Shown here: in pieces, positions 7,775-43,318 of the stretch | How the letters are laid out: each line of letters opens with the position of its first letter | Numbering within the stretch: the stretch's first letter is position 1 | IMG/VR virus record: IMGVR_UViG_3300045988_181214 | DNA length: 43,968 bases | Strand: one strand, 5' to 3' | Source of the DNA: a virus | Lineage: Duplodnaviria; Heunggongvirae; Uroviricota; Caudoviricetes | Position numbers and translations under genes: made by a program | Notes under the pieces: model-generated | The model's input: only the letters and a program-made list of their open reading frames with translations | Databases searched by the model: none | What the model was told of the DNA's origin: nothing

Positions 7775-7796
7775 AATTGAATATTTTATTTTATGG

Positions 7797-7804
7797 CAAA
7801 GGTA
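7797..7804 (-). promoter_or_regulatory. -7 promoter element (TAccTTTG) for the TMP operon
   Basis: Minus-strand TTACCTTTGCC 23 nt upstream of TMP ATG, just after a terminator hairpin. Confidence 0.45.
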
Positions 7805-7808
7805 ATAA

Positions 7809-7850
7809 GGAGGAAAACATAATAAAAATACGAGACCGTATGTATTGCGG
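7809..7850 (-). terminator. Intrinsic terminator hairpin (13-bp stem) with T-tract
   Basis: AAATACGAGACCG / CGGTCTCGTATTT inverted repeat; on the minus strand followed by TTTTTATTAT; the 20-mer ATAATAAAAATACGAGACCG is repeated at 10321-10340. Confidence 0.55.
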
Positions 7851-7858
7851 TCTCGTAT

Positions 7859-8200
7859 TTACTTGGTTATCTCTTGCTCTTTTTTAAAGAACTCGTATGC
7901 AAGATTGTTTGCATCCCAAACAAGATATTTCTTGTTGGTGTTTCTGAGTGTCTGTTTATCACCTGTTATGGAGTTTGCTATCGTGACGCAGAAGAATCTG
8001 CCTCGCTTTACGATTTCGGTTGCCGTATTGTTTGGCGATGCCAGTCTTATAGGCTCGTCAAAATTCTCATCAAAAGTATCAAACAATGGTTCGGAAGCCA
8101 CTGTGGCTGGGCAAGAACTATTGCCAAGCTTGTCGAGACCTTTGAGGAGTGCAACTGTTATAATCGCTAGTATCCAGCATCCAAATATAGTCGTAATCAT
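7859..8200 (-). CDS. Small membrane/secreted protein (hypothetical)
   Basis: 113-aa ORF from first ATG (track ORF 7859-8398 begins at an alternative start); N-terminal hydrophobic helix MITTIFGCWILAIITVALL; promoter motif 30 nt upstream. Confidence 0.5.
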   Translation of the reverse strand: MITTIFGCWILAIITVALLKGLDKLGNSSCPATVASEPLFDTFDENFDEPIRLASPNNTATEIVKRGRFFCVTIANSITGDKQTLRNTNKKYLVWDANNLAYEFFKKEQEITK

Positions 8201-8229
8201 AATTTGTAAGTTTATTATTATCTTTGTTG

Positions 8230-8237
8230 CAAATTTA
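8230..8237 (-). promoter_or_regulatory. -7 promoter element (TAaaTTTG)
   Basis: Minus-strand TAAATTTGCAAC ~30 nt upstream of ATG at 8200. Confidence 0.35.
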
Positions 8238-8422
8238 ATAATAATATTTGGAATATGCAAGTATTTTGTGTTAAATCTTTGATTTGTTTTGCGGTATGGT
8301 GGAAAAATATTATATTTGCAGTGGCAATTTAATTTTAGAAAGTATGAATAAAGATTTTGCTTTAATATTGGTAAACATAATATGCGCCTTAACGGCATTT
8401 GTTTGTATGATAATCACTATTG

Positions 8423-10270: not shown

Positions 10271-10297
10271 GGTGAATCTTGTTTTTGTTTTACAGTG

Positions 10298-10305
10298 CAA
10301 AGATA
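10298..10305 (-). promoter_or_regulatory. -7 promoter element (TAtcTTTG) for the lysis cassette
   Basis: Minus-strand TTATCTTTGCACT 28 nt upstream of holin ATG. Confidence 0.45.
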
Positions 10306-10320
10306 AGAAGGGTAGGGTGA

Positions 10321-10358
10321 TAATAAAAATACGAGACCGCCCTAACGATCTCGTATTA
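10321..10358 (-). terminator. Intrinsic terminator hairpin with T-tract
   Basis: Stem ATACGAGA / TCTCGTAT with a 12-nt loop, followed on the minus strand by TTTTTATTAT; shares an identical 20-mer with 7809-7828. Confidence 0.5.
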
Positions 10359-10784: not shown

Positions 10785-12359
10785 TCACGTGAATTTATAG
10801 AACTTCTTTTTGAATTTATTGTGAAGCTCTGCGACCACGGTGGAGAAGGGTAGCTCATCACGACAGAAGTCGTTGAGGGCTTGGTCTATCAAGATCTTGG
10901 AGCCTGTATAGAGGTAGTGCTCCAGAGGTTGCCATACCTCGGTGCCGTCTGGCTCCAGGTGGTCGATGATGCGATAGCGTAGGGAGAGGCGCTTCTTGGG
11001 CACCTCTTTGGTGACCATGTGGGTGGAGCCGTCCGGGGCGGTCTCCTCTTGCTGGATGGTCTCCTTCTCTATCACCGAGTCATCGACCTTGTAGTCTATC
11101 ACTTGAACGAGGAACTTGTTCTCGTCCTGACCCTCACGGCAGATGATGTCCTCGATGGACTGCTGCTGTGATTTCTCCATACCGTCAAAAGGCACGCGCG
11201 CACGGCGAGCCTTGACGAGTTTACCGAATCTTTCCATACCGATTTTCTTATATAAGTTTTTAGAGTTTGCGTGGATGCCCAGACCTAGGCGAGAGGCTGC
11301 CTTGAGCTGTATCTGGCGGTCTGTGAAGCCCGCCTTGCGTAAGTTGGCGATCTGTCTGCAGAGGTCGTGCTTGAACCGCTTGCGCAACAGGGCGTGGTCG
11401 GCGTAGATGATCTGACCGCATAAGTCGATGCCATCGCAGGTGCGGTGGATACCCCAAGACTTATTGATGGATAGGTGCCAGTCACGGGCGAGGTGCATCA
11501 CGGCAAGCTCTGCCATCAGCCTGAGGAACACCTTATCCTCGTGGAGGATGTAGATGTTGTCCATGAAGCGGTAATAATGGCGAAGACCTTGGCGGCAGAA
11601 GCGCTCGAACCTATCGTTGAGCGACTTCACTCCCCCGCATAGCAGTTGAGCTTGCTGCTGAGTGCGACAGGTAACGAGCATGTCGCTCACGTAGCGAGCC
11701 TGCCAGTAACGGAACTTGTCGGTGTCTTGGAGAATGTCGAAGCATCGGAGTGCCAGGTAATCGAAGCGGGCGAGGAAGAGCTGACCCAAGAGTTGGGCGA
11801 GCTTGACGCCGAGCACGATGCCTGGATTGAAGCTATCGACCACCTCGTCGATGAAGGCGAGGAGCTTGCGGTCTTTGATCTTGCGGCGATATTCACTTTT
11901 GAGAAGAGCGTGGTCTATGCTCTGAAAATAATGGTGAATATCCATGGGCAAGCAGTAGAAGGTATCTTGCTGTGGCGAGTTGAAGATGTCTCGCTTGACA
12001 AGATTATAGAAATAATGGGTGCCCTTGCCCTTGGAACCAGCCGGACTGTGGCTGTAGAGTGTCTTGCGAAGGTTATCCTCTACAGGTTGCAGGGCAGCGT
12101 GCTGGATGACGTGGTCGATAACGGGCAGCTTGTTGACTTGGCGATGTTTTGGATAGTCGATATCTTTGGCGACATAGGCTGAGGTATGCCAAGTTTGTTG
12201 GGTGTAAGCATCGAGCATGCGTCCGATGTTATGGTCTAGGTTTGCCTCGAATTTTTGGACCGCACGGCGAGACATCTTTTGTCGGGCGTAGTCATAGAAT
12301 GCCCGACGAAAGTTGTCTAGTGTCTCGACCTGTAGCGATATGTTGCCAAACCTTTTCAT
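10785..12359 (-). CDS. Reverse transcriptase (DGR-type), catalytic motif non-canonical
   Basis: 524 aa from first ATG (track ORF starts at GTG 12428); RT motif 2 SPAGSKGKGTHY, motif A LPMDIHHYFQSIDH, motif B-like GIVLGVKLAQLLGQLFLARFD; sits 208 bp downstream of the template repeat. Confidence 0.8.
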   Translation of the reverse strand: MKRFGNISLQVETLDNFRRAFYDYARQKMSRRAVQKFEANLDHNIGRMLDAYTQQTWHTSAYVAKDIDYPKHRQVNKLPVIDHVIQHAALQPVEDNLRKTLYSHSPAGSKGKGTHYFYNLVKRDIFNSPQQDTFYCLPMDIHHYFQSIDHALLKSEYRRKIKDRKLLAFIDEVVDSFNPGIVLGVKLAQLLGQLFLARFDYLALRCFDILQDTDKFRYWQARYVSDMLVTCRTQQQAQLLCGGVKSLNDRFERFCRQGLRHYYRFMDNIYILHEDKVFLRLMAELAVMHLARDWHLSINKSWGIHRTCDGIDLCGQIIYADHALLRKRFKHDLCRQIANLRKAGFTDRQIQLKAASRLGLGIHANSKNLYKKIGMERFGKLVKARRARVPFDGMEKSQQQSIEDIICREGQDENKFLVQVIDYKVDDSVIEKETIQQEETAPDGSTHMVTKEVPKKRLSLRYRIIDHLEPDGTEVWQPLEHYLYTGSKILIDQALNDFCRDELPFSTVVAELHNKFKKKFYKFT

Positions 12360-12567
12360 AAGCGGTGTAATGTCTGTGTTGAACGGTGTATAAACTGTGT
12401 ATAGTCTGAATCGTCTGCTTTTGTACACTTGATAACCTTCGACCGGATGACCGTGTTGTCATCATCTACCAGCTGTCTTATTAATGTGTATGTATCGCCA
12501 TGGGGCGAGGATTGACCCTGTAATCTCGAAGTGGGAGCAAACGACCCACGAAGAGATATGTCTGTAA

Positions 12568-12689
12568 GTTGAGGGCGGCGCCGTAGTTCACATTGGCATT
12601 CGAGACAGCATTGTTCACGTTGAGCGTTGAAAGACCGCATTGACCACCATTGTTAGCGTTAGCACCACGAAGGCAGACACGAAAACCGG
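12568..12689 (-). repeat. DGR template repeat (TR), noncoding
   Basis: 122 bp matching 12979-13100 at constant offset 411 with no indels; 9 mismatches, all at T on the plus strand (A on the transcribed strand); Asn (AAC)-rich in the target frame. Confidence 0.85.
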
Positions 12690-12723
12690 CACCTAGGGTC
12701 ACACCCTGGTATCATAACCGCCG

Positions 12724-12731
12724 CAAAGGTA
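12724..12731 (-). promoter_or_regulatory. -7 promoter element (TAccTTTG) upstream of TR-RT
   Basis: Minus-strand ATTTTTATTACCTTTGCGG ~35 nt upstream of the TR. Confidence 0.45.
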
Positions 12732-12927
12732 ATAAAAATAATCGGTATGGAAGCATGTCAAAGAGCTTTTTTGATGTTTTTATTGATATTTTTTTTGTCG
12801 CCGACCGCCACAGGCGGTAACTTAAGGCGAGCTACGCTCGCTGGGTGCTTCGGCTTCGCCGAGGGTGCTCAGGTCTCTTTTGCACACCCAGTAAACCGAT
12901 GCACACCCAGCAAACTGATGTAGTCTC

Positions 12928-14400
12928 TTAGGCCGCCTCGTAATACACGGGTTCAACGGACCACTCGGATGCTGCTTCGCAGAGGGCGGCGCCGCAGTTC
13001 ACATAGGCATTCGAGACAGCATTGTTCACGTCGAGCGTAGAAAGACCGCATTGACCACCATCGTAAGCGCTAGCACCACGAAGGCAGACACGAAAACCGG
13101 ATGTAGCACCAGACGTATTCCAGAAATAGCTAGTCCAGTAGGTTGACTCGGATGCGCCCGTAGCGGTCGGGAAGTTCTCTAGATGCTCCATCGAGAGCGT
13201 CTTGATATAGCCTTCGCCCTTGGTCGGCGAGGTGCTGTAAGCCACCATGCCATCGGTGGAACCTATCGTCCACGTGCCGTAGATGGACGGTGCCACGAGA
13301 TGGGTCACGGAAGTGTCCTCGTTGCAACGCACCTGCTCGTCATCCATGTGTCGCCACAATAAGCCGAAGCCATTTTTGTAGCCGAAGAAGGATGGTATCT
13401 TGGCGGTATAGACCACGGTGCCATCGTCTTTTTTGACCTCGTAGCTCGCCTCGCCGCAAGCGTCGCCAAGCTCGATGCCAGCCGACATCGGCACGACAGG
13501 GCGATAGCCGTTGTAACCACCCCAATCAGGCATCTGTGTCACGCCAGCGCCGAGACCACCCTGGTAGAGACCGTTGGCATCTTTTTGGCTGTTGACGGCA
13601 TCCTGGTCGTAGTGGGTGCCGAAGATGACCCCGAAGAGCACGGAGATGGCAGAGGTGTGGCGCATGGTGGTGCAGAGCCAGCCTGTGCCGTTTTTGCGGG
13701 CAGCAGCACGCCAGTATTCGGTAGTCTGGTTGGTGGCAGCCTTGCCCAGCATGGTGCGGTTGGTGTTATCTAACGTGGAGTCGTTGTTGCCGCCTCGGTA
13801 GTTTGTGCCCTCGTTGATGTAGCTCACCAGCTTGCCTGTGCTGCGCTCTAGCGTGGCGAAGCCAGCGGCGGAGATGCTGCCCACAGGTATCTTGTAATTG
13901 TACTCGCCTGGTATCGGCGTAGGGCTGACCATCTCGTAATGGAGTCTGCCCACGGTCTTGATGACCATGTACCACTCCTTGCCCCAGCCCCACTGGTAGT
14001 GCCCCTCTGAGCCATCGAGCTTGGCTGTCTCGCCGGTGGCATACTTGTGGTGGTCTTTGGAGTCGAGCTTGCGACGGGAGTGGTCATTCTTGACCAGATA
14101 ACAGCCCAGACCCAGCTCCGTTGGTAGGGTCTGCAGTAACTCTAGCGAGCCCACATAAGTGGCGGCTTTAGGGGTTGCATTGTCGAGGTTCCACACTCGA
14201 CCACACCAAGGATGCTGTCCCATTTGGACGGCGCTTTTGAGCGACATCTGCTCAGACCTGCCGGATTTTTTGTCGAAGACCTCGACAATCTTGTCAGTGG
14301 CGCTCATGTCTGACTGTGGGAGGTCGTCAACCTGTTGACCTCCATCGAAAGCGGCTATGATAGCCTTGAGCTTACTCTCTTCTTCTGATGTTAATGCCAT
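12928..14400 (-). CDS. DGR target protein: tail-fibre / receptor-binding protein with C-terminal variable region
   Basis: 490 aa from ATG (track ORF extends to 14448); VR occupies the last ~40 codons; lies within the tail-fibre gene block. Confidence 0.75.
   Translation of the reverse strand: MALTSEEESKLKAIIAAFDGGQQVDDLPQSDMSATDKIVEVFDKKSGRSEQMSLKSAVQMGQHPWCGRVWNLDNATPKAATYVGSLELLQTLPTELGLGCYLVKNDHSRRKLDSKDHHKYATGETAKLDGSEGHYQWGWGKEWYMVIKTVGRLHYEMVSPTPIPGEYNYKIPVGSISAAGFATLERSTGKLVSYINEGTNYRGGNNDSTLDNTNRTMLGKAATNQTTEYWRAAARKNGTGWLCTTMRHTSAISVLFGVIFGTHYDQDAVNSQKDANGLYQGGLGAGVTQMPDWGGYNGYRPVVPMSAGIELGDACGEASYEVKKDDGTVVYTAKIPSFFGYKNGFGLLWRHMDDEQVRCNEDTSVTHLVAPSIYGTWTIGSTDGMVAYSTSPTKGEGYIKTLSMEHLENFPTATGASESTYWTSYFWNTSGATSGFRVCLRGASAYDGGQCGLSTLDVNNAVSNAYVNCGAALCEAASEWSVEPVYYEAA
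12979..13100 (-). repeat. DGR variable repeat (VR) at the 3' end of the target gene
   Basis: Encodes the C-terminal ...GFRVCLRGASAYDGGQCGLSTLDVNNAVSNAYVNCGAALC of the target; matches the TR except at template-adenine positions; GC-rich 3' end GCGGCGCCGCCC (IMH-like). Confidence 0.85.
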
Positions 14401-20139: not shown

Positions 20140-20155
20140 ATTTTTTATTTTGATG

Positions 20156-20163
20156 CAAAGATA
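20156..20163 (-). promoter_or_regulatory. -7 promoter element (TAtcTTTG)
   Basis: Minus-strand CCTATCTTTGCATC 17 nt upstream of ATG at 20139. Confidence 0.35.
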
Positions 20164-20191
20164 GGTATGATGAGAACTATATAAAAATACG

Positions 20192-25495: not shown

Positions 25496-25518
25496 ATCAA
25501 TGTCTCATTAAAACGATG

Positions 25519-25526
25519 CAAAGATA
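25519..25526 (-). promoter_or_regulatory. -7 promoter element (TAtcTTTG)
   Basis: Minus-strand CCTATCTTTGCATC 24 nt upstream of ATG at 25495. Confidence 0.45.
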
Positions 25527-25540
25527 GGAAGGAAGGGGAG

Positions 25541-25580
25541 AAAATAAAAATACCTGATTGTCATCACGACAACCAGGTAT
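25541..25580 (-). terminator. Intrinsic terminator hairpin with T-tract
   Basis: Stem ATACCTGATTGTC / GACAACCAGGTAT (12 of 13 paired), loop ATCAC, followed on the minus strand by TTTTTATTTT. Confidence 0.5.
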
Positions 25581-36064: not shown

Positions 36065-37090
36065 TTATGCAAACTGATTTAAAACATCCAACACTTGATC
36101 TGAGCAGAAATCCTCGACCTTGGTGTCATCGACAGCAGTGTGCGTGTCGCCACCAGGCTCTCCCTCCAGATCCTTCACTTTATCCTTCAGGTCATCTCTC
36201 TCCTTTTCGAGATTCTTGACCTTAGTCTCTAACTCCTTCTTCTCGTCCTTGACCTTCTGAAGCTCTGTGTCTTTGTCGGTCACGGCCTTGGAGTCGGCAG
36301 CGATCTTATCCTCCAGTTTCTGCATCTGCTCCTGTGAGATTGTGCAGTTCTTTGCGGAATCTTCTGCCTCAATGCCCTCGATATTGAGGACATTGTTGAT
36401 GTGAGTCCATTTTTTGATCATATTAATAATTTTATTTTGTGATTTATCTTTGCCGAATAATCGGTCGATGATGCTTGGCTTTTTATCATACCAGGAGTTA
36501 ACAACCTCTGGGAGAACAGGAAGGTTGTTGTACTTGATGAAGTCTTGCGTCTGCTCGGTGATGTCGGCAGGCTTGCCATCCATGGCTTCATCGACGAGAC
36601 CCAGTTCGATGCACTCATCGACGGTGTGCCACATCGCTTCGGACATCACCTTGACGATGTCCTCGTGCTTCTTGCCCGAGCGATCGCAGTAAACGTTGGC
36701 GATGATGTTGTCGATTTTCTGCTGGTTCTCTTGCTGTTTTTGAAGTTGCTCGATGAGCGAGCCTATCTGCTCCTCGTTGAGCGCAGACCACACAAACTGC
36801 TCGGTAGAGCACTTGTGTACCAGGAGCAAGCTATATTTGCTCATGCGAATCTTGCTGGCACCCATCGCACAGATGGTGGCAGCAGAGGCAGAGAAGCCCG
36901 CCTGGAAGTCAACGGTCACGTCGCCATGGGACTTGAACATCTGACAGATGGCGAGACCTGCGGAGACCTCGCCACCCAAGGAGTCGATGGCAACATCGAC
37001 GTGCTTATCTTTGTTGGCCTTAAGAACATCGCGAACCATGAGCTTGGTCCACGAGCCAATATATCCTGTGATAGAAATTTGGTACTTCAT
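36065..37090 (-). CDS. ClpP-family prohead protease with C-terminal coiled-coil (scaffold-like) domain
   Basis: IDSLGGEVSAGLAI, catalytic Ser in GFSASAA, His in LVHKC, Asp in GLVDEAM align with ClpP; C-terminal ~100 aa is a Lys/Glu/Asp-rich coiled-coil. Confidence 0.8.
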   Translation of the reverse strand: MKYQISITGYIGSWTKLMVRDVLKANKDKHVDVAIDSLGGEVSAGLAICQMFKSHGDVTVDFQAGFSASAATICAMGASKIRMSKYSLLLVHKCSTEQFVWSALNEEQIGSLIEQLQKQQENQQKIDNIIANVYCDRSGKKHEDIVKVMSEAMWHTVDECIELGLVDEAMDGKPADITEQTQDFIKYNNLPVLPEVVNSWYDKKPSIIDRLFGKDKSQNKIINMIKKWTHINNVLNIEGIEAEDSAKNCTISQEQMQKLEDKIAADSKAVTDKDTELQKVKDEKKELETKVKNLEKERDDLKDKVKDLEGEPGGDTHTAVDDTKVEDFCSDQVLDVLNQFA

Positions 37091-37122
37091 ATATCTTTGC
37101 GATTTTTACGGCGCAAAGATAT
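37091..37122. promoter_or_regulatory. Perfect 11-bp inverted repeat spanning the protease promoter (operator candidate)
   Basis: ATATCTTTGCG (37091-37101) / CGCAAAGATAT (37112-37122) with 10-nt spacer; contains the minus-strand -7 motif TATCTTTGCG and abuts the start codon at 37088-37090. Confidence 0.45.
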
Positions 37123-37150
37123 ATAATAATGTATAAGGATAAAAAAACTT

Positions 37151-37570
37151 TTATTGGATGATTTGGAGCGGTTTTATCACGTCAGACCATGTCACGGTAT
37201 AAGTGATGAGCGATGAGTCTGTGTGTGAGCTTGGCATATTTTCGGTGCGAGTGAGCACCGGGAAGGGACGCTGGTCTCTGCCCAGAAGATAGGCGCACCC
37301 ATCGGCGGTAGTCACCTTGTAGGCGAGCGGGTGAACCTCTGAGTCTATCTGCTCGCTCGACTTGAAGGTGAGCTTTGAAGTGAAAATGCGAACCTTGGAC
37401 TCAATTTTGTCGGTGATTTCACAACTCGACGGCATTTTGCACTTTATCTGCTGGAAGACTGCACTTGCAGGAATGATGCAAAGATTTTTGGCTGGGAAGA
37501 TGATAGCCTTGAGGTCATCGGCTCTCACGACCTCAATCTTGATGATGTTTTTGATGTATGACATAAGCAT
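37151..37570 (-). CDS. Hypothetical phage protein
   Basis: 139-aa ORF, ATG start. Confidence 0.45.
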   Translation of the reverse strand: MLMSYIKNIIKIEVVRADDLKAIIFPAKNLCIIPASAVFQQIKCKMPSSCEITDKIESKVRIFTSKLTFKSSEQIDSEVHPLAYKVTTADGCAYLLGRDQRPFPVLTRTENMPSSHTDSSLITYTVTWSDVIKPLQIIQ

Positions 37571-37649: not shown

Positions 37650-38234
37650 TTAATCTTTGCTAAATCTTGTTGTAGATGTTAAATTTACGCCTCTTTTTGC
37701 GTGTTGATCACGCATTCTGTAGAAACATTGGCGTACGGTATCCTCGTAATCGATGCCAATGCCATGCTGTTCGCACCATGCCGAAATGAGCGATGAAAGC
37801 TTGCATGAGCGGTCGGCGATGTCTTTGAGCGAAGCCCAGAGATCCATCTTGAAGAGGTCGGAAATCATCTCTTTGACGGCACGTCTGGCACGTGGCCCGA
37901 GGTAGTTGTACTCTCGCACAGGCTTAGCCTTGGAGTCAGGCAGCTCGATGGCAAGATACTCTTCGGGATGGGTGAGCCATCGGCTCTGCTCGAACTCCTC
38001 GTCGTGGAAGGTATGCTTGACACTTTGGTGCAGTTGGCTGGCATCAGCCTGCTGCATCTCTTGGATGTTCTCTTGGTCGATAGGCGATAGGTTGACAACG
38101 GGAGGTCTGCTGGTGAACTTGCGGAGCACAGCCACCTCGTTGCCGATGGCAGGGAAGACCACTGGGTTGCCATAAGCTCGGTAAGCCCATTGTCTGATGT
38201 GGGTAGGAACTTTGATGTAAACAATTGGATTCAT
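37650..38234 (-). CDS. Hypothetical phage protein
   Basis: 194 aa from ATG 38234 (track starts at TTG 38246); promoter motif 21 nt upstream. Confidence 0.5.
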   Translation of the reverse strand: MNPIVYIKVPTHIRQWAYRAYGNPVVFPAIGNEVAVLRKFTSRPPVVNLSPIDQENIQEMQQADASQLHQSVKHTFHDEEFEQSRWLTHPEEYLAIELPDSKAKPVREYNYLGPRARRAVKEMISDLFKMDLWASLKDIADRSCKLSSLISAWCEQHGIGIDYEDTVRQCFYRMRDQHAKRGVNLTSTTRFSKD

Positions 38235-38254: not shown

Positions 38255-38262
38255 CAAAGATA
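38255..38262 (-). promoter_or_regulatory. -7 promoter element (TAtcTTTG)
   Basis: Minus-strand GTATCTTTGCACG upstream of ATG 38234. Confidence 0.45.
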
Positions 38263-38378
38263 CAAAGAAAATTTGAAATAACTAACGATAATCGGTAAAA
38301 ACTAACTTTTATCAGTAAATTTGGTGTGATATAATTTCGTCCGAAAAGTTTGTATTTTTGTATCGTACAAACAAGGCT

Positions 38379-38638
38379 CTGTAACTAGCTGATAATCAAT
38401 ACTATTTTTGTGATACAATTTTCTGATACAGAAATTGTAACTCTTTAGCTTTTGTAACTTGGGGTTTTGTCGAGGTCGAAGACCTGTAGGAGAAGGGGCT
38501 TGTTACAAACTTGAAAAACTTTGTAACCGAGTTGTAACGCAACTTTGTAAACATCGGCATGGCGGCTTAACTCACTCTTTTTTAGTTATTTACCTCTTTT
38601 GCTAACATTATGTTACAGAGTTACAAAGGATTTGTATA
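38379..38638. repeat. Iteron cluster (TTGTAAC repeats, both orientations): putative replication origin
   Basis: At least 8 copies of (T)TTGTAAC or its complement GTTACA(A) in an AT-rich ~260-bp stretch downstream of the primase-helicase gene. Confidence 0.45.
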
Positions 38639-38770
38639 AAATAAAAGAAAGGGGTGTGGGGAAAACGATGGCACGGGGCGTGAAGGAGGTTAGAAAAGGC
38701 CCATCGAGACACCCAGGACACCCCCATTGGCCAATGGAGGGGTAGCGAGACGAAACATCGCCCATGGCAA

Positions 38771-38807
38771 CGAAAAAAGGGAGCGACGGCCAATGCGCAT
38801 CGCTCCC
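38771..38807 (-). terminator. Hairpin plus U-tract downstream of the primase gene
   Basis: 8-bp stem GGGAGCGA / TCGCTCCC with 14-nt loop, followed on the minus strand by TTTTTTCG; the nearby perfect palindrome CCATTGGCCAATGG (38724-38737) is part of the same GC-rich block. Confidence 0.4.
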
Positions 38808-38939
38808 TCGTAACATGGGAAAAGAATTATAAATCAGCAAAAATCTGCCTATGAAATCAGCCCTCGTCTGCTTGCAAAAATAGTGAAAAATTGCTTGAAA
38901 ATTTAGCCGAAAATATTTGCATAATTCAGATATTTTTTG

Positions 38940-42819: not shown

Positions 42820-42836
42820 ATTCCAATATTTATTAT

Positions 42837-42855
42837 TAATTTTGTTGCAAAGTTA
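42837..42855. promoter_or_regulatory. Face-to-face divergent promoter elements in a near-palindrome (lysogeny switch region)
   Basis: TAATTTTG-ttg-CAAAGTTA: plus-strand TAatTTTG (42837-42844) and minus-strand TAacTTTG (complement of 42848-42855). Confidence 0.4.
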
Positions 42856-42940
42856 GTAATAAAAATCGGAAAATACTAACGAAAGTAAGTAAAAACACCT
42901 ATGATAATAGGTTAAATATTATTAATTAAATTAGGTAATT

Positions 42941-43318
42941 ATGTTTAATGGTCAGATAATCAGAAAGTTAATGTCGGATGCTGGCTTAACTAAAAAAGAG
43001 TTTGAAAGACGTATGTTCGGTAGTAAATCGACCGACCTCAACCATTTGGAAAAAGCGAAGAATCTTCGCAGTGACACTCTCGAACGTCTGCGTGAGGTGT
43101 TGAAGTGCTCTATGGATGACTTCTTTACAGCACCCTCATGGGCTGAGAACGGAAAGGGGACAGTCGTAGGCTCTAACAATGTGCTGTCAACAGTAGCCAT
43201 CGGCAACGAAGTGATGGAAGCCCAATATCTCAAGGAGTTGCTCTTGGAGAAGGACAAACGCATCAGCACTTTGGAAAATTATATCAAGCTTCTGGAGACT
43301 AACTTAAATAAGGACTAA
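42941..43318 (+). CDS. XRE-family helix-turn-helix repressor (CI-like)
   Basis: 125 aa; N-terminal HTH IIRKLMSDAGLTKKEFERRMFGSKSTDLNHLE; C-terminal coiled-coil; divergent from the early operon and next to attR. Confidence 0.65.
   Translation: MFNGQIIRKLMSDAGLTKKEFERRMFGSKSTDLNHLEKAKNLRSDTLERLREVLKCSMDDFFTAPSWAENGKGTVVGSNNVLSTVAIGNEVMEAQYLKELLLEKDKRISTLENYIKLLETNLNKD

Follow-up and report, generated by a model that had tools for sequence, protein, structure and literature searches.

An inverted repeat joins the promoter and the start codon of a head protease gene in a Bacteroidota phage and may block translation of read-through transcripts

The subject of this report is an inverted repeat in IMG/VR virus record IMGVR_UViG_3300045988_181214, a stretch of 43,968 nucleotides (hereafter the window) that corresponds approximately to a whole temperate, siphovirus-like phage. 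The repeat lies at the beginning of the gene that opens the head/packaging operon and encodes a ClpP-type head maturation protease, and it connects the -7 box region of the protease promoter with the protease start codon. The repeat is real and not a product of chance. On balance, we lean towards the view that it encodes a device of the phage T4 gene e type, which would block translation of transcripts that read into the protease gene from upstream and would leave the mRNA made from the protease promoter translatable. The support for this view is computational: the repeat and its rarity, the motif and architecture of the promoter, a difference in folding between the two kinds of transcript, a junction free of terminators, and a lineage-specific conservation of the pairing.

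The repeat spans the protease promoter and start codon

On the plus strand, positions 37088-37124 read CAT-ATATCTTTGCG-ATTTTTACGG-CGCAAAGATAT-AT. The arms ATATCTTTGCG (37091-37101) and CGCAAAGATAT (37112-37122), separated by the 10-nt spacer ATTTTTACGG, constitute the 11-bp palindrome described in an earlier note on this DNA. The palindrome is present as it was given there, and a repeat finder extended it to a perfect inverted repeat of 13 bp (37089-37101/37112-37124). The extended repeat takes in the A and the T of the protease ATG (37090..37088, minus strand), so the arm that had been said to abut the start codon in fact overlaps it. In minus-strand RNA the stem amounts to 15 bp (37126..37112 with 37101..37087), the two extra pairs being a U.G on the G of the AUG and a U-A on position +4. 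When the whole window was searched for the 11-mer arm with up to one mismatch, it was present in the two arms alone. Only two perfect inverted repeats of at least 13 bp with spacers of 3-20 nt exist in the 44-kb window, where a mean of 0.05 would be expected by chance (60 first-order Markov simulations). The second of the two (7826-7860) is a usual terminator stem with a T-run behind it.

The earlier note had also identified the downstream arm with the minus-strand -7 promoter element, and this proved correct: TATCTTTG fits TAnnTTTG, the -7 box of sigma-ABfr, which is the primary sigma factor of Bacteroidota (PMC7366714). Promoters of this phylum combine a -33 TTTG with a -7 TAnnTTTG, the -33 motif being weak in published sets (PMC7366714, PMC6847099), and in Flavobacterium 241 mapped promoters have invariant T-12, A-11, T-8, T-7, T-6 and G-5 (PMC6847099). 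TAnnTTTG was observed 52 times in the window against 19.3 expected, a 2.7-fold enrichment that was reached in none of 100 shuffles. Before about ten other genes the minus strand displays the same architecture, with a T-rich run approximately 19-24 nt upstream, TAnnTTTGC, and an ATG 14-30 nt downstream. The protease promoter resembles the sigma-ABfr type in its perfect -7 box, its T-rich element about 19 nt upstream, its ATG 23 nt after the box and its repetition throughout the genome; it differs by carrying a T7 run, placed like the T-rich runs of the other promoters of this phage, and no literal TTTG at the -33 position, and by its inverted self-copy, none being known for that promoter type. 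The modal 5' untranslated region (UTR) in B. thetaiotaomicron is 23 nt (PMC7366714). In nearly every related lineage examined, a box matching at six or five of the six positions was found 17-33 nt before the protease ATG. Because the G of the box is at -5 in Flavobacterium (PMC6847099), protease transcription is predicted to start at about 37109, inside the spacer, with a leader of 19 nt. The promoter-side DNA arm (-15..-3) would therefore not be transcribed from the protease promoter.

The hairpin is predicted to form on read-through RNA

The predicted folding of the two kinds of transcript was very different. A read-through RNA (37150-37060, minus strand) folded at -19.7 kcal/mol with z = -4.2, none of 200 shuffles being as good, and an RNA beginning at the protease promoter (from 37108) reached -3.2 kcal/mol, no better than shuffles. 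In partition-function folding, the region from -12 to +6 was unpaired at 11% in the read-through RNA versus 65% in the own transcript. The corresponding unpaired probabilities in 14 variants that carry the hairpin were 0.02-0.34 and 0.41-0.78. Since the own transcript would lack the promoter-side arm, the hairpin should be formable only on RNA that enters from upstream. The earlier note had suggested a hairpin in the 5' UTR that occludes the start codon, to be checked by folding the predicted 5' UTR in silico. A hairpin hiding the start codon is indeed the best-supported reading, but it cannot be placed in the 5' UTR of the own transcript, whose leader came out unstructured and whose predicted start lies downstream of the promoter-side arm.

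A transcript arriving from upstream would meet no terminator at the protease junction, where the T-run is present and a terminator hairpin was not found. At junctions 7804, 10305 and 25526, terminator hairpins of -16 to -21 kcal/mol abut the T-run. An intrinsic terminator was also considered for the 15-bp stem itself and rejected: the stem is followed by GAAGUACCAAAU, with no U-run, and was not listed by a terminator scan. The phage's own intrinsic terminators, such as 7826-7860, share with it a perfect 13-bp stem between co-oriented genes, and the protease stem is unlike them in lacking a U-run, in being AU-rich and in having the start of the next gene as its 3' arm. Rfam covariance models at gathering score returned nothing at the site, the only matches in the window being a tRNA (83-155) and RT-17 (12411-12512).

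The junctions with terminators have a layout of their own. Terminator-plus-promoter cassettes occupy 7795-7860, 10296-10350 and 25517-25570 (also 20140-20191), in which a stem (for example the perfect 13-bp stem at 7826-7860) adjoins a T-run located 24 nt before the next -7 box. The T-run of a cassette serves both the terminator and the promoter, as upstream element of the latter.

The stem is kept in close relatives

A close set of relatives was assembled from 55 viral contigs and 26 metagenome contigs, with proteases 77-100% identical and approximately ten haplotypes of the upstream region. All haplotypes of this clade retain a stem that pairs the AUG, with energies from -9.5 to -21.5 kcal/mol. 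The arms are conserved, and the loop is free to vary in both sequence and length, with spacers of 10, 11, 13 and 20 nt. Loci L003 and L049 carry a compensatory change, TATC/GATA to TAAC/GTTA (U-A to A-U), which again gives 13 perfect base pairs, and L004 has a perfect repeat with an 11-nt loop. In L064 (77% amino acid identity, 20-nt loop) the inner stem has been rebuilt from GCG/CGC to GCAG/CUGU, and a C-G pair replaces the U.G on the G of the AUG. A single U.U mismatch and U.G wobbles mark the majority haplotype (L015 type), and two A.C mismatches on the sense strand mark the L005 group. Counted column by column over eight haplotypes, 93% of the cells were paired, with one pair altered on both sides.

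L057 (CAVCRI010000336.1), where the locus is 81% identical, belongs to a contig that had been binned as Lachnospiraceae. Its promoters are of the Bacteroidota type, and the Lachnospiraceae assignment is probably a binning error.

Promoter-to-start pairing recurs in distant lineages

Distant loci encode proteases 27-72% identical to that of the window, and all of them share its synteny: a co-oriented upstream open reading frame (ORF), a gap of 53-174 nt, and the protease. To score pairing, a duplex energy was calculated for RNA of a promoter segment (box -8 to box +4) paired with a start segment (ATG-14 to ATG+3), and 1000 leader shuffles per lineage served as the null. Besides the window clade, L061, L094, L097, L112, L128 and L134 scored p<=0.01, with arms unrelated to those of the window; widening the promoter segment to the -33 region added L096 and L126, with arms that flank the box. 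The proteases of these distant hairpin lineages are 27-42% identical to that of the window. Altogether 9/29 lineage representatives were at p<=0.01 (binomial 8e-12), and still 7/27 when the window with L064, and L096 with L126, were merged as single events. The arms are ATATTGCC and GGCAATAT-G around a 10-nt spacer in L097, and CATTGTCT/AGACAATG in L128. L061 forms 15 RNA pairs, three of them G.U, of which 8 remain as DNA pairs. The AUG itself is inside the stem in at least five lineages, namely the window, L064, L097, L128 and L134.

The pairing was specific to the matching partners. When promoters and leaders were swapped among lineages, the own promoter/leader pair ranked first of 21 among that promoter's pairings in 8/8 hairpin lineages tested, and pairs at or below -10 kcal/mol made up 8/21 on the diagonal of the matrix versus 20/420 off it. 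Pairing as a general property of this phage's promoters was considered and rejected: the protease promoter alone scores (p = 0.001), and of the 12 further box-ATG pairs scanned in the window none was at p<=0.01 (38262 was marginal at p = 0.03). None of about eight non-protease promoter-gene pairs in the distant loci, homologues of the neighbouring 194-aa gene included, reached p<=0.01 either.

The strand on which the pairs form is informative. The sense-strand duplex was stabler than its reverse complement in 12/16 variants, and in 7/8 of the distant lineages with L096 and L126 counted as one, because many pairs are G.U on the sense strand; the opposite preference was seen in the L005 and L016 haplotypes and in L128. 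This G.U bias towards the sense strand and the variability of the spacer speak for a stem in RNA of the gene's own strand rather than for a DNA dyad bound by a protein.

The earlier note had proposed conservation in related phages as a check on the palindrome. The outcome of this check was mixed: the close clade and several distant lineages retain it, and about two-thirds of the distant lineages that have the -7 box are without it. Scans of the viral contigs with three distant proteases (P0053, P0057 and P0062) gave no match. In the distant lineage of L093 and L098, the leader carries a direct rather than an inverted copy of the -7 box region (ATTATCTT ... ATTATCTT), roughly 30 nt ahead of the protease ATG.

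A model for promoter-dependent translation of the protease

In the model that we favour, translation of the protease would depend on where its transcript began. Transcripts of the upstream unit (promoter 38262; genes for 194 and 139 aa) would meet no terminator and would cross the 60-nt gap into the protease gene. On such read-through RNA, the copy of the -7 box region would pair with the last 11 bases of the leader and AUGA to give the 15-bp hairpin, which would bury the start codon and thereby block initiation. Polymerase starting at the protease promoter would begin about 5 nt after the box, in what is the loop of the hairpin. The resulting mRNA would have no 5' arm and a 19-nt unstructured leader, and should be translatable. 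Ribosomes of the Bacteroidia do not use Shine-Dalgarno pairing and need upstream adenines and low structure near the start (PMC7366714, PMC6847099), and structure at the start codon tunes initiation in Bacteroidota (PMC6847099). Given these needs, a 15-bp stem over the AUG should inhibit strongly. The transcription start, the read-through, the translational block and the early/late meaning of the arrangement are all elements that we infer from sequence.

Several points weigh against this model. The transcription start is a prediction based on a motif, and the read-through RNA is putative. The promoters at 38262 and 37121 are alike in motif, and a temporal difference between them is conjecture. 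Covariation in the close clade is thin, with one compensatory pair and with 15/500 shuffles reaching the observed score, and the mismatches of the L005 group would be G.U pairs on the antisense strand. About 20/29 lineages keep the promoter without the pairing, including L058 with 72% amino acid identity, and the pairing is therefore dispensable. In some of the hairpin lineages (L094, L112 and L061) a strong terminator lies immediately upstream as well, and the case for needing a block of read-through is weaker for it; presence of the hairpin showed no clear anticorrelation with presence of an upstream terminator, which lends no support either way. Finally, anchoring of the repeat at the start codon is weaker evidence than it appears, because leaders are about 20 nt long and any repeat following the box must end near the ATG.

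The same repeat can be read in other ways. The earlier note had offered an operator for a dimeric regulator, whereby a phage or host protein would bind the palindrome and repress the head-operon promoter, for example in the lysogen. The site extends from the -7 box to about +20, a position that suits a repressor, and the phage encodes an HTH_26 protein (42941-43318). Nevertheless, we do not favour the operator and consider it unlikely. A rigid dimer would not tolerate arm spacings that range from 10 to 20 nt among close relatives, and elsewhere in the genome the half-site has no counterpart other than generic -7 boxes. The candidate operator of the switch region (42837-42855 and a CCTAT/ATAGG dyad) is unrelated. 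Distant lineages pair through G.U and internal loops that leave DNA dyads of only 8 bp (L061 is an example), and G.U pairs mean nothing in duplex DNA. Fold matches of the 194-aa protein, which are helix-turn-helix-like, are too weak to call it DNA-binding, and L058 keeps this protein and has lost the palindrome. The site is like the operators of lambda-type CI/Cro and of LexA in that its dyad symmetry is centred just downstream of the promoter core, and unlike them in its variable spacing, in the lack of a second genomic site and in its conservation through G.U pairs. A perfect complement of the -7 box is also a consensus box on the other strand (TATCTTTG, plus strand, 37092-37099), which raises the prospect of face-to-face promoters, with an antisense transcript running into the upstream gene and competition for RNA polymerase. 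The arrangement recurs at the likely genetic switch (42837-42844 plus/42855-42848 minus), with a real plus-strand gene, a candidate HTH repressor, downstream, and at 8219-8237, and the arms of L005 and L057 differ only at an 'n' position of TAnnTTTG. We nonetheless hold face-to-face promoters to be improbable as the explanation. Most relatives are without a plus-strand consensus, the majority haplotypes having CAACTTAG or TAACTTAG and L064 TATCTTTA; L005 and L057 read TAGCTTTG, with a G at -10, which mapped boxes almost never have there (PMC6847099). A reverse box is missing from all of the distant hairpin lineages, and the window offers neither a correctly spaced plus-strand T-rich element nor a plus-strand gene or terminator that follows.

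Another role in RNA, which we rate just as improbable, would make the stem a stabiliser or processing site for the 3' end of the upstream mRNA, or a site of pausing or attenuation for read-through polymerase. This stem is a stable one, with a co-transcribed gene on either side, and conserved arms with a free loop fit any function of RNA structure. There is, however, no U-run, the real terminators of this phage being GC-containing stems followed by T5-7; 15 bp is short for RNase III; and a stabiliser would have no reason to include the AUG, which is in the 3' arm in at least five lineages. That the repeat has no function at all, the leader resembling the reverse complement of the box through A-rich composition or a past inverted duplication, appears very improbable to us. 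Some complementarity is expected between A-rich leaders and T-rich boxes, and two-thirds of the lineages are without pairing. Against this, the rarity of perfect 13-bp repeats (0.05 expected per window), the composition-preserving shuffles and the swaps with real leaders all reject chance, relatives show a compensatory change and a rebuilt inner stem, and no pairing of this kind was seen at other promoters that share the box and have comparable leaders.

The start-codon-hiding hairpin could be combined with one of these alternatives: as a more speculative addition, the palindrome of the window clade may also act as a face-to-face antisense promoter, as at the genetic switch. The element found there is an AT-rich, palindromic promoter element present in two copies (42829-42874 and 8211-8256) that are 83% identical over 46 nt. 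Its minus-strand boxes are TAACTTTG (42855..42848) and TAAATTTG (8237..8230), each facing a plus-strand box 3 nt away (42837-42844 and 8219-8226), and most differences between its arms fall on the 'nn' positions. Situated between a Cro/C1-type HTH gene (42941-43318, plus strand) and a 72-aa ORF (42819-42601, minus strand), the first copy is probably a lysis/lysogeny switch in which face-to-face promoters overlap. The second copy lies ahead of a 113-aa ORF (8200-7859), after which comes a terminator.

Comparison with known phage systems

Control of T4 gene e by a hairpin was reportedly described by McPheeters et al. in 1986. Early read-through transcripts of T4 genes e, soc, 49 and I-TevI fold a hairpin that locks away the initiation region, and the late promoter is situated in its 5' strand (PMC3014915). 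The protease locus shares several features with this type of control: promoter DNA encodes the 5' strand and the start region is covered by the 3' strand, long transcripts should be able to fold the hairpin and promoter-proximal ones should not, a late function lies downstream of co-oriented earlier genes, and the structure is found in some relatives and missing in others. It differs in its host, which is a Bacteroidota, and in its promoter, a host-type sigma-ABfr TAnnTTTG in contrast to the T4 gp55 late promoter TATAAATA. No Shine-Dalgarno sequence is involved, only the AUG and an A-rich leader being buried, and the phage is a temperate siphovirus-like prophage with a head protease whereas T4 is a myovirus. 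The T4 cases were shown experimentally and the protease case is predicted. A further parallel is mobE of Aeromonas phage Aeh1, where, according to the account of Gibb & Edgell (2009) given in PMC3014915, a hairpin masks the ribosome binding site. In both cases a gene lies within a longer transcript and its initiation region is, or for the protease would be, hidden by an RNA hairpin, and mobE is unlike the protease in being a homing endonuclease gene inside another gene.

The kind of mechanism is thus known from T4 gene e. What would be new is the phage group, the host phylum, the use of a host-type -7 box as an element directed against the start codon, and the lack of a Shine-Dalgarno sequence. 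The most interesting part is the recurrence with unrelated arms across several lineages; the finding as a whole is no surprise in principle. A wider proposal, which we advance more tentatively than the model for the window itself, is that siphovirus-like phages which infect Bacteroidota (Segatella/Prevotella and relatives) and form an uncultivated group have repeatedly recruited the -7 box region as an 'anti-start-codon' sequence, with unrelated arms, such that late-gene translation would be licensed only on transcripts from that promoter, the pairing having been kept by compensatory evolution or gained convergently.

Very little has been explored of how phages of gut Bacteroidota regulate their genes, and with hosts whose promoters are unusual and whose ribosomes are Shine-Dalgarno-blind, one has to ask by what means phage timing is imposed. 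If the model is true, the T4 trick is also at work in a prophage of Segatella copri, with nothing but a host-type box and a start codon, and the device has been kept or re-invented in several lineages. It would amount to promoter-licensed translation in a phylum without Shine-Dalgarno recognition, and would provide a rule, readable from sequence, for operon boundaries that are leaky to transcription and closed to translation. It would also offer a compact part for synthetic biology in Bacteroides and Segatella, in which translation reports which promoter has fired.

The phage, the protease gene and neighbouring features

The features on which the model depends are collected in Table 1. After the protease box, the next minus-strand box in a promoter context is found only at about 28215, and for this reason the protease promoter is taken to head a head/packaging block of about 9 kb.

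Table 1. Coordinates of the protease locus and of the elements of the inverted repeat (positions in the window).
Feature	Position	Strand	Remarks
ClpP-type head maturation protease, C-terminal coiled coil	36065..37090	-	Pfam PF00574 4e-14; PHROG 94 1.5e-29
Start-codon-side (3') arm of the RNA stem, CGCAAAGAUAUAUGA	37087..37101	-	last 11 nt of the leader, AUG and A(+4)
Spacer/loop, CCGUAAAAAU, 10 nt	37102..37111	-	holds the predicted transcription start (~37109, G)
Promoter-side (5') arm of the RNA stem, UUAUAUAUCUUUGCG	37112..37126	-	perfect DNA arm 37112-37124; predicted -17..-3 relative to the start
sigma-ABfr -7 box of the protease/head-operon promoter, TATCTTTG	37114..37121	-	fits TAnnTTTG (TAHHTTTG)
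T7 run, AT-rich element of the -33 region	37141..37147	-	19 nt upstream of the -7 box; without a preceding terminator hairpin
Co-oriented upstream gene, 139 aa, function unknown	37151..37570	-	ends 60 nt before the protease ATG; proposed source of read-through
-7 box of the upstream transcription unit (194-aa and 139-aa genes)	38255..38262	-	motif scan; its transcripts would enter the protease gene

The gene for the 194-aa protein (37650-38234, minus strand) accompanies the protease in every lineage, the common order being 194 aa, about 135 aa, protease and capsid. Searches with the protein gave no family match and no PDB sequence match. Its structural model is confident (pLDDT 83) and has only a weak fold likeness to winged-helix/homeodomain proteins and to an uncharacterised protein of a Polaribacter phage.

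The gene content of the window includes a tape-measure protein, a large terminase, a primase-helicase-like protein of 984 aa and the Cro/C1-type HTH gene. A protease locus 82% identical was found in a metagenome-assembled genome of Segatella copri, and the host is therefore a Bacteroidota. In a phage collection, a DNA search with the 3.2-kb region gave no match, and a protein search returned only ClpP-type proteases less than 32% identical, in unrelated phages; no cultured relative was found there.

Several other elements of the window deserve mention. A tRNA-Met (83-155 by Rfam; gene 83-158) has its own -7 box (44-51) and adjoins a tyrosine-integrase gene (275-1438), and this end is probably that of the prophage attachment site, or else the tRNA is phage-borne. 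A diversity-generating retroelement (10785-13100) comprises a reverse transcriptase (10785-12428) and the Rfam RT-17 RNA. A pair of 119-nt repeats, 94% identical (12571-12689 and 12982-13100), likely represents the template and variable repeats of the retroelement within the gene for a 506-aa tail protein. Several GTTACA(A) repeats at 38370-38640 (minus strand), in a 740-nt gene-free stretch after the primase-helicase-like gene, may be iterons of a replication origin. On the minus strand at 38764-38882, a -7 box (38882..38875) has no ORF behind it and is followed about 75 nt on by a strong terminator (GGGAGCGAtgcgcattggccGTCGCTCCC and T6), which makes this region a candidate small RNA of approximately 100 nt and -34 kcal/mol. 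Pairing of the candidate RNA (38882 promoter) with the protease start region was not significant (p = 0.09). The region that encodes it is approximately 70-92% conserved in the close clade.

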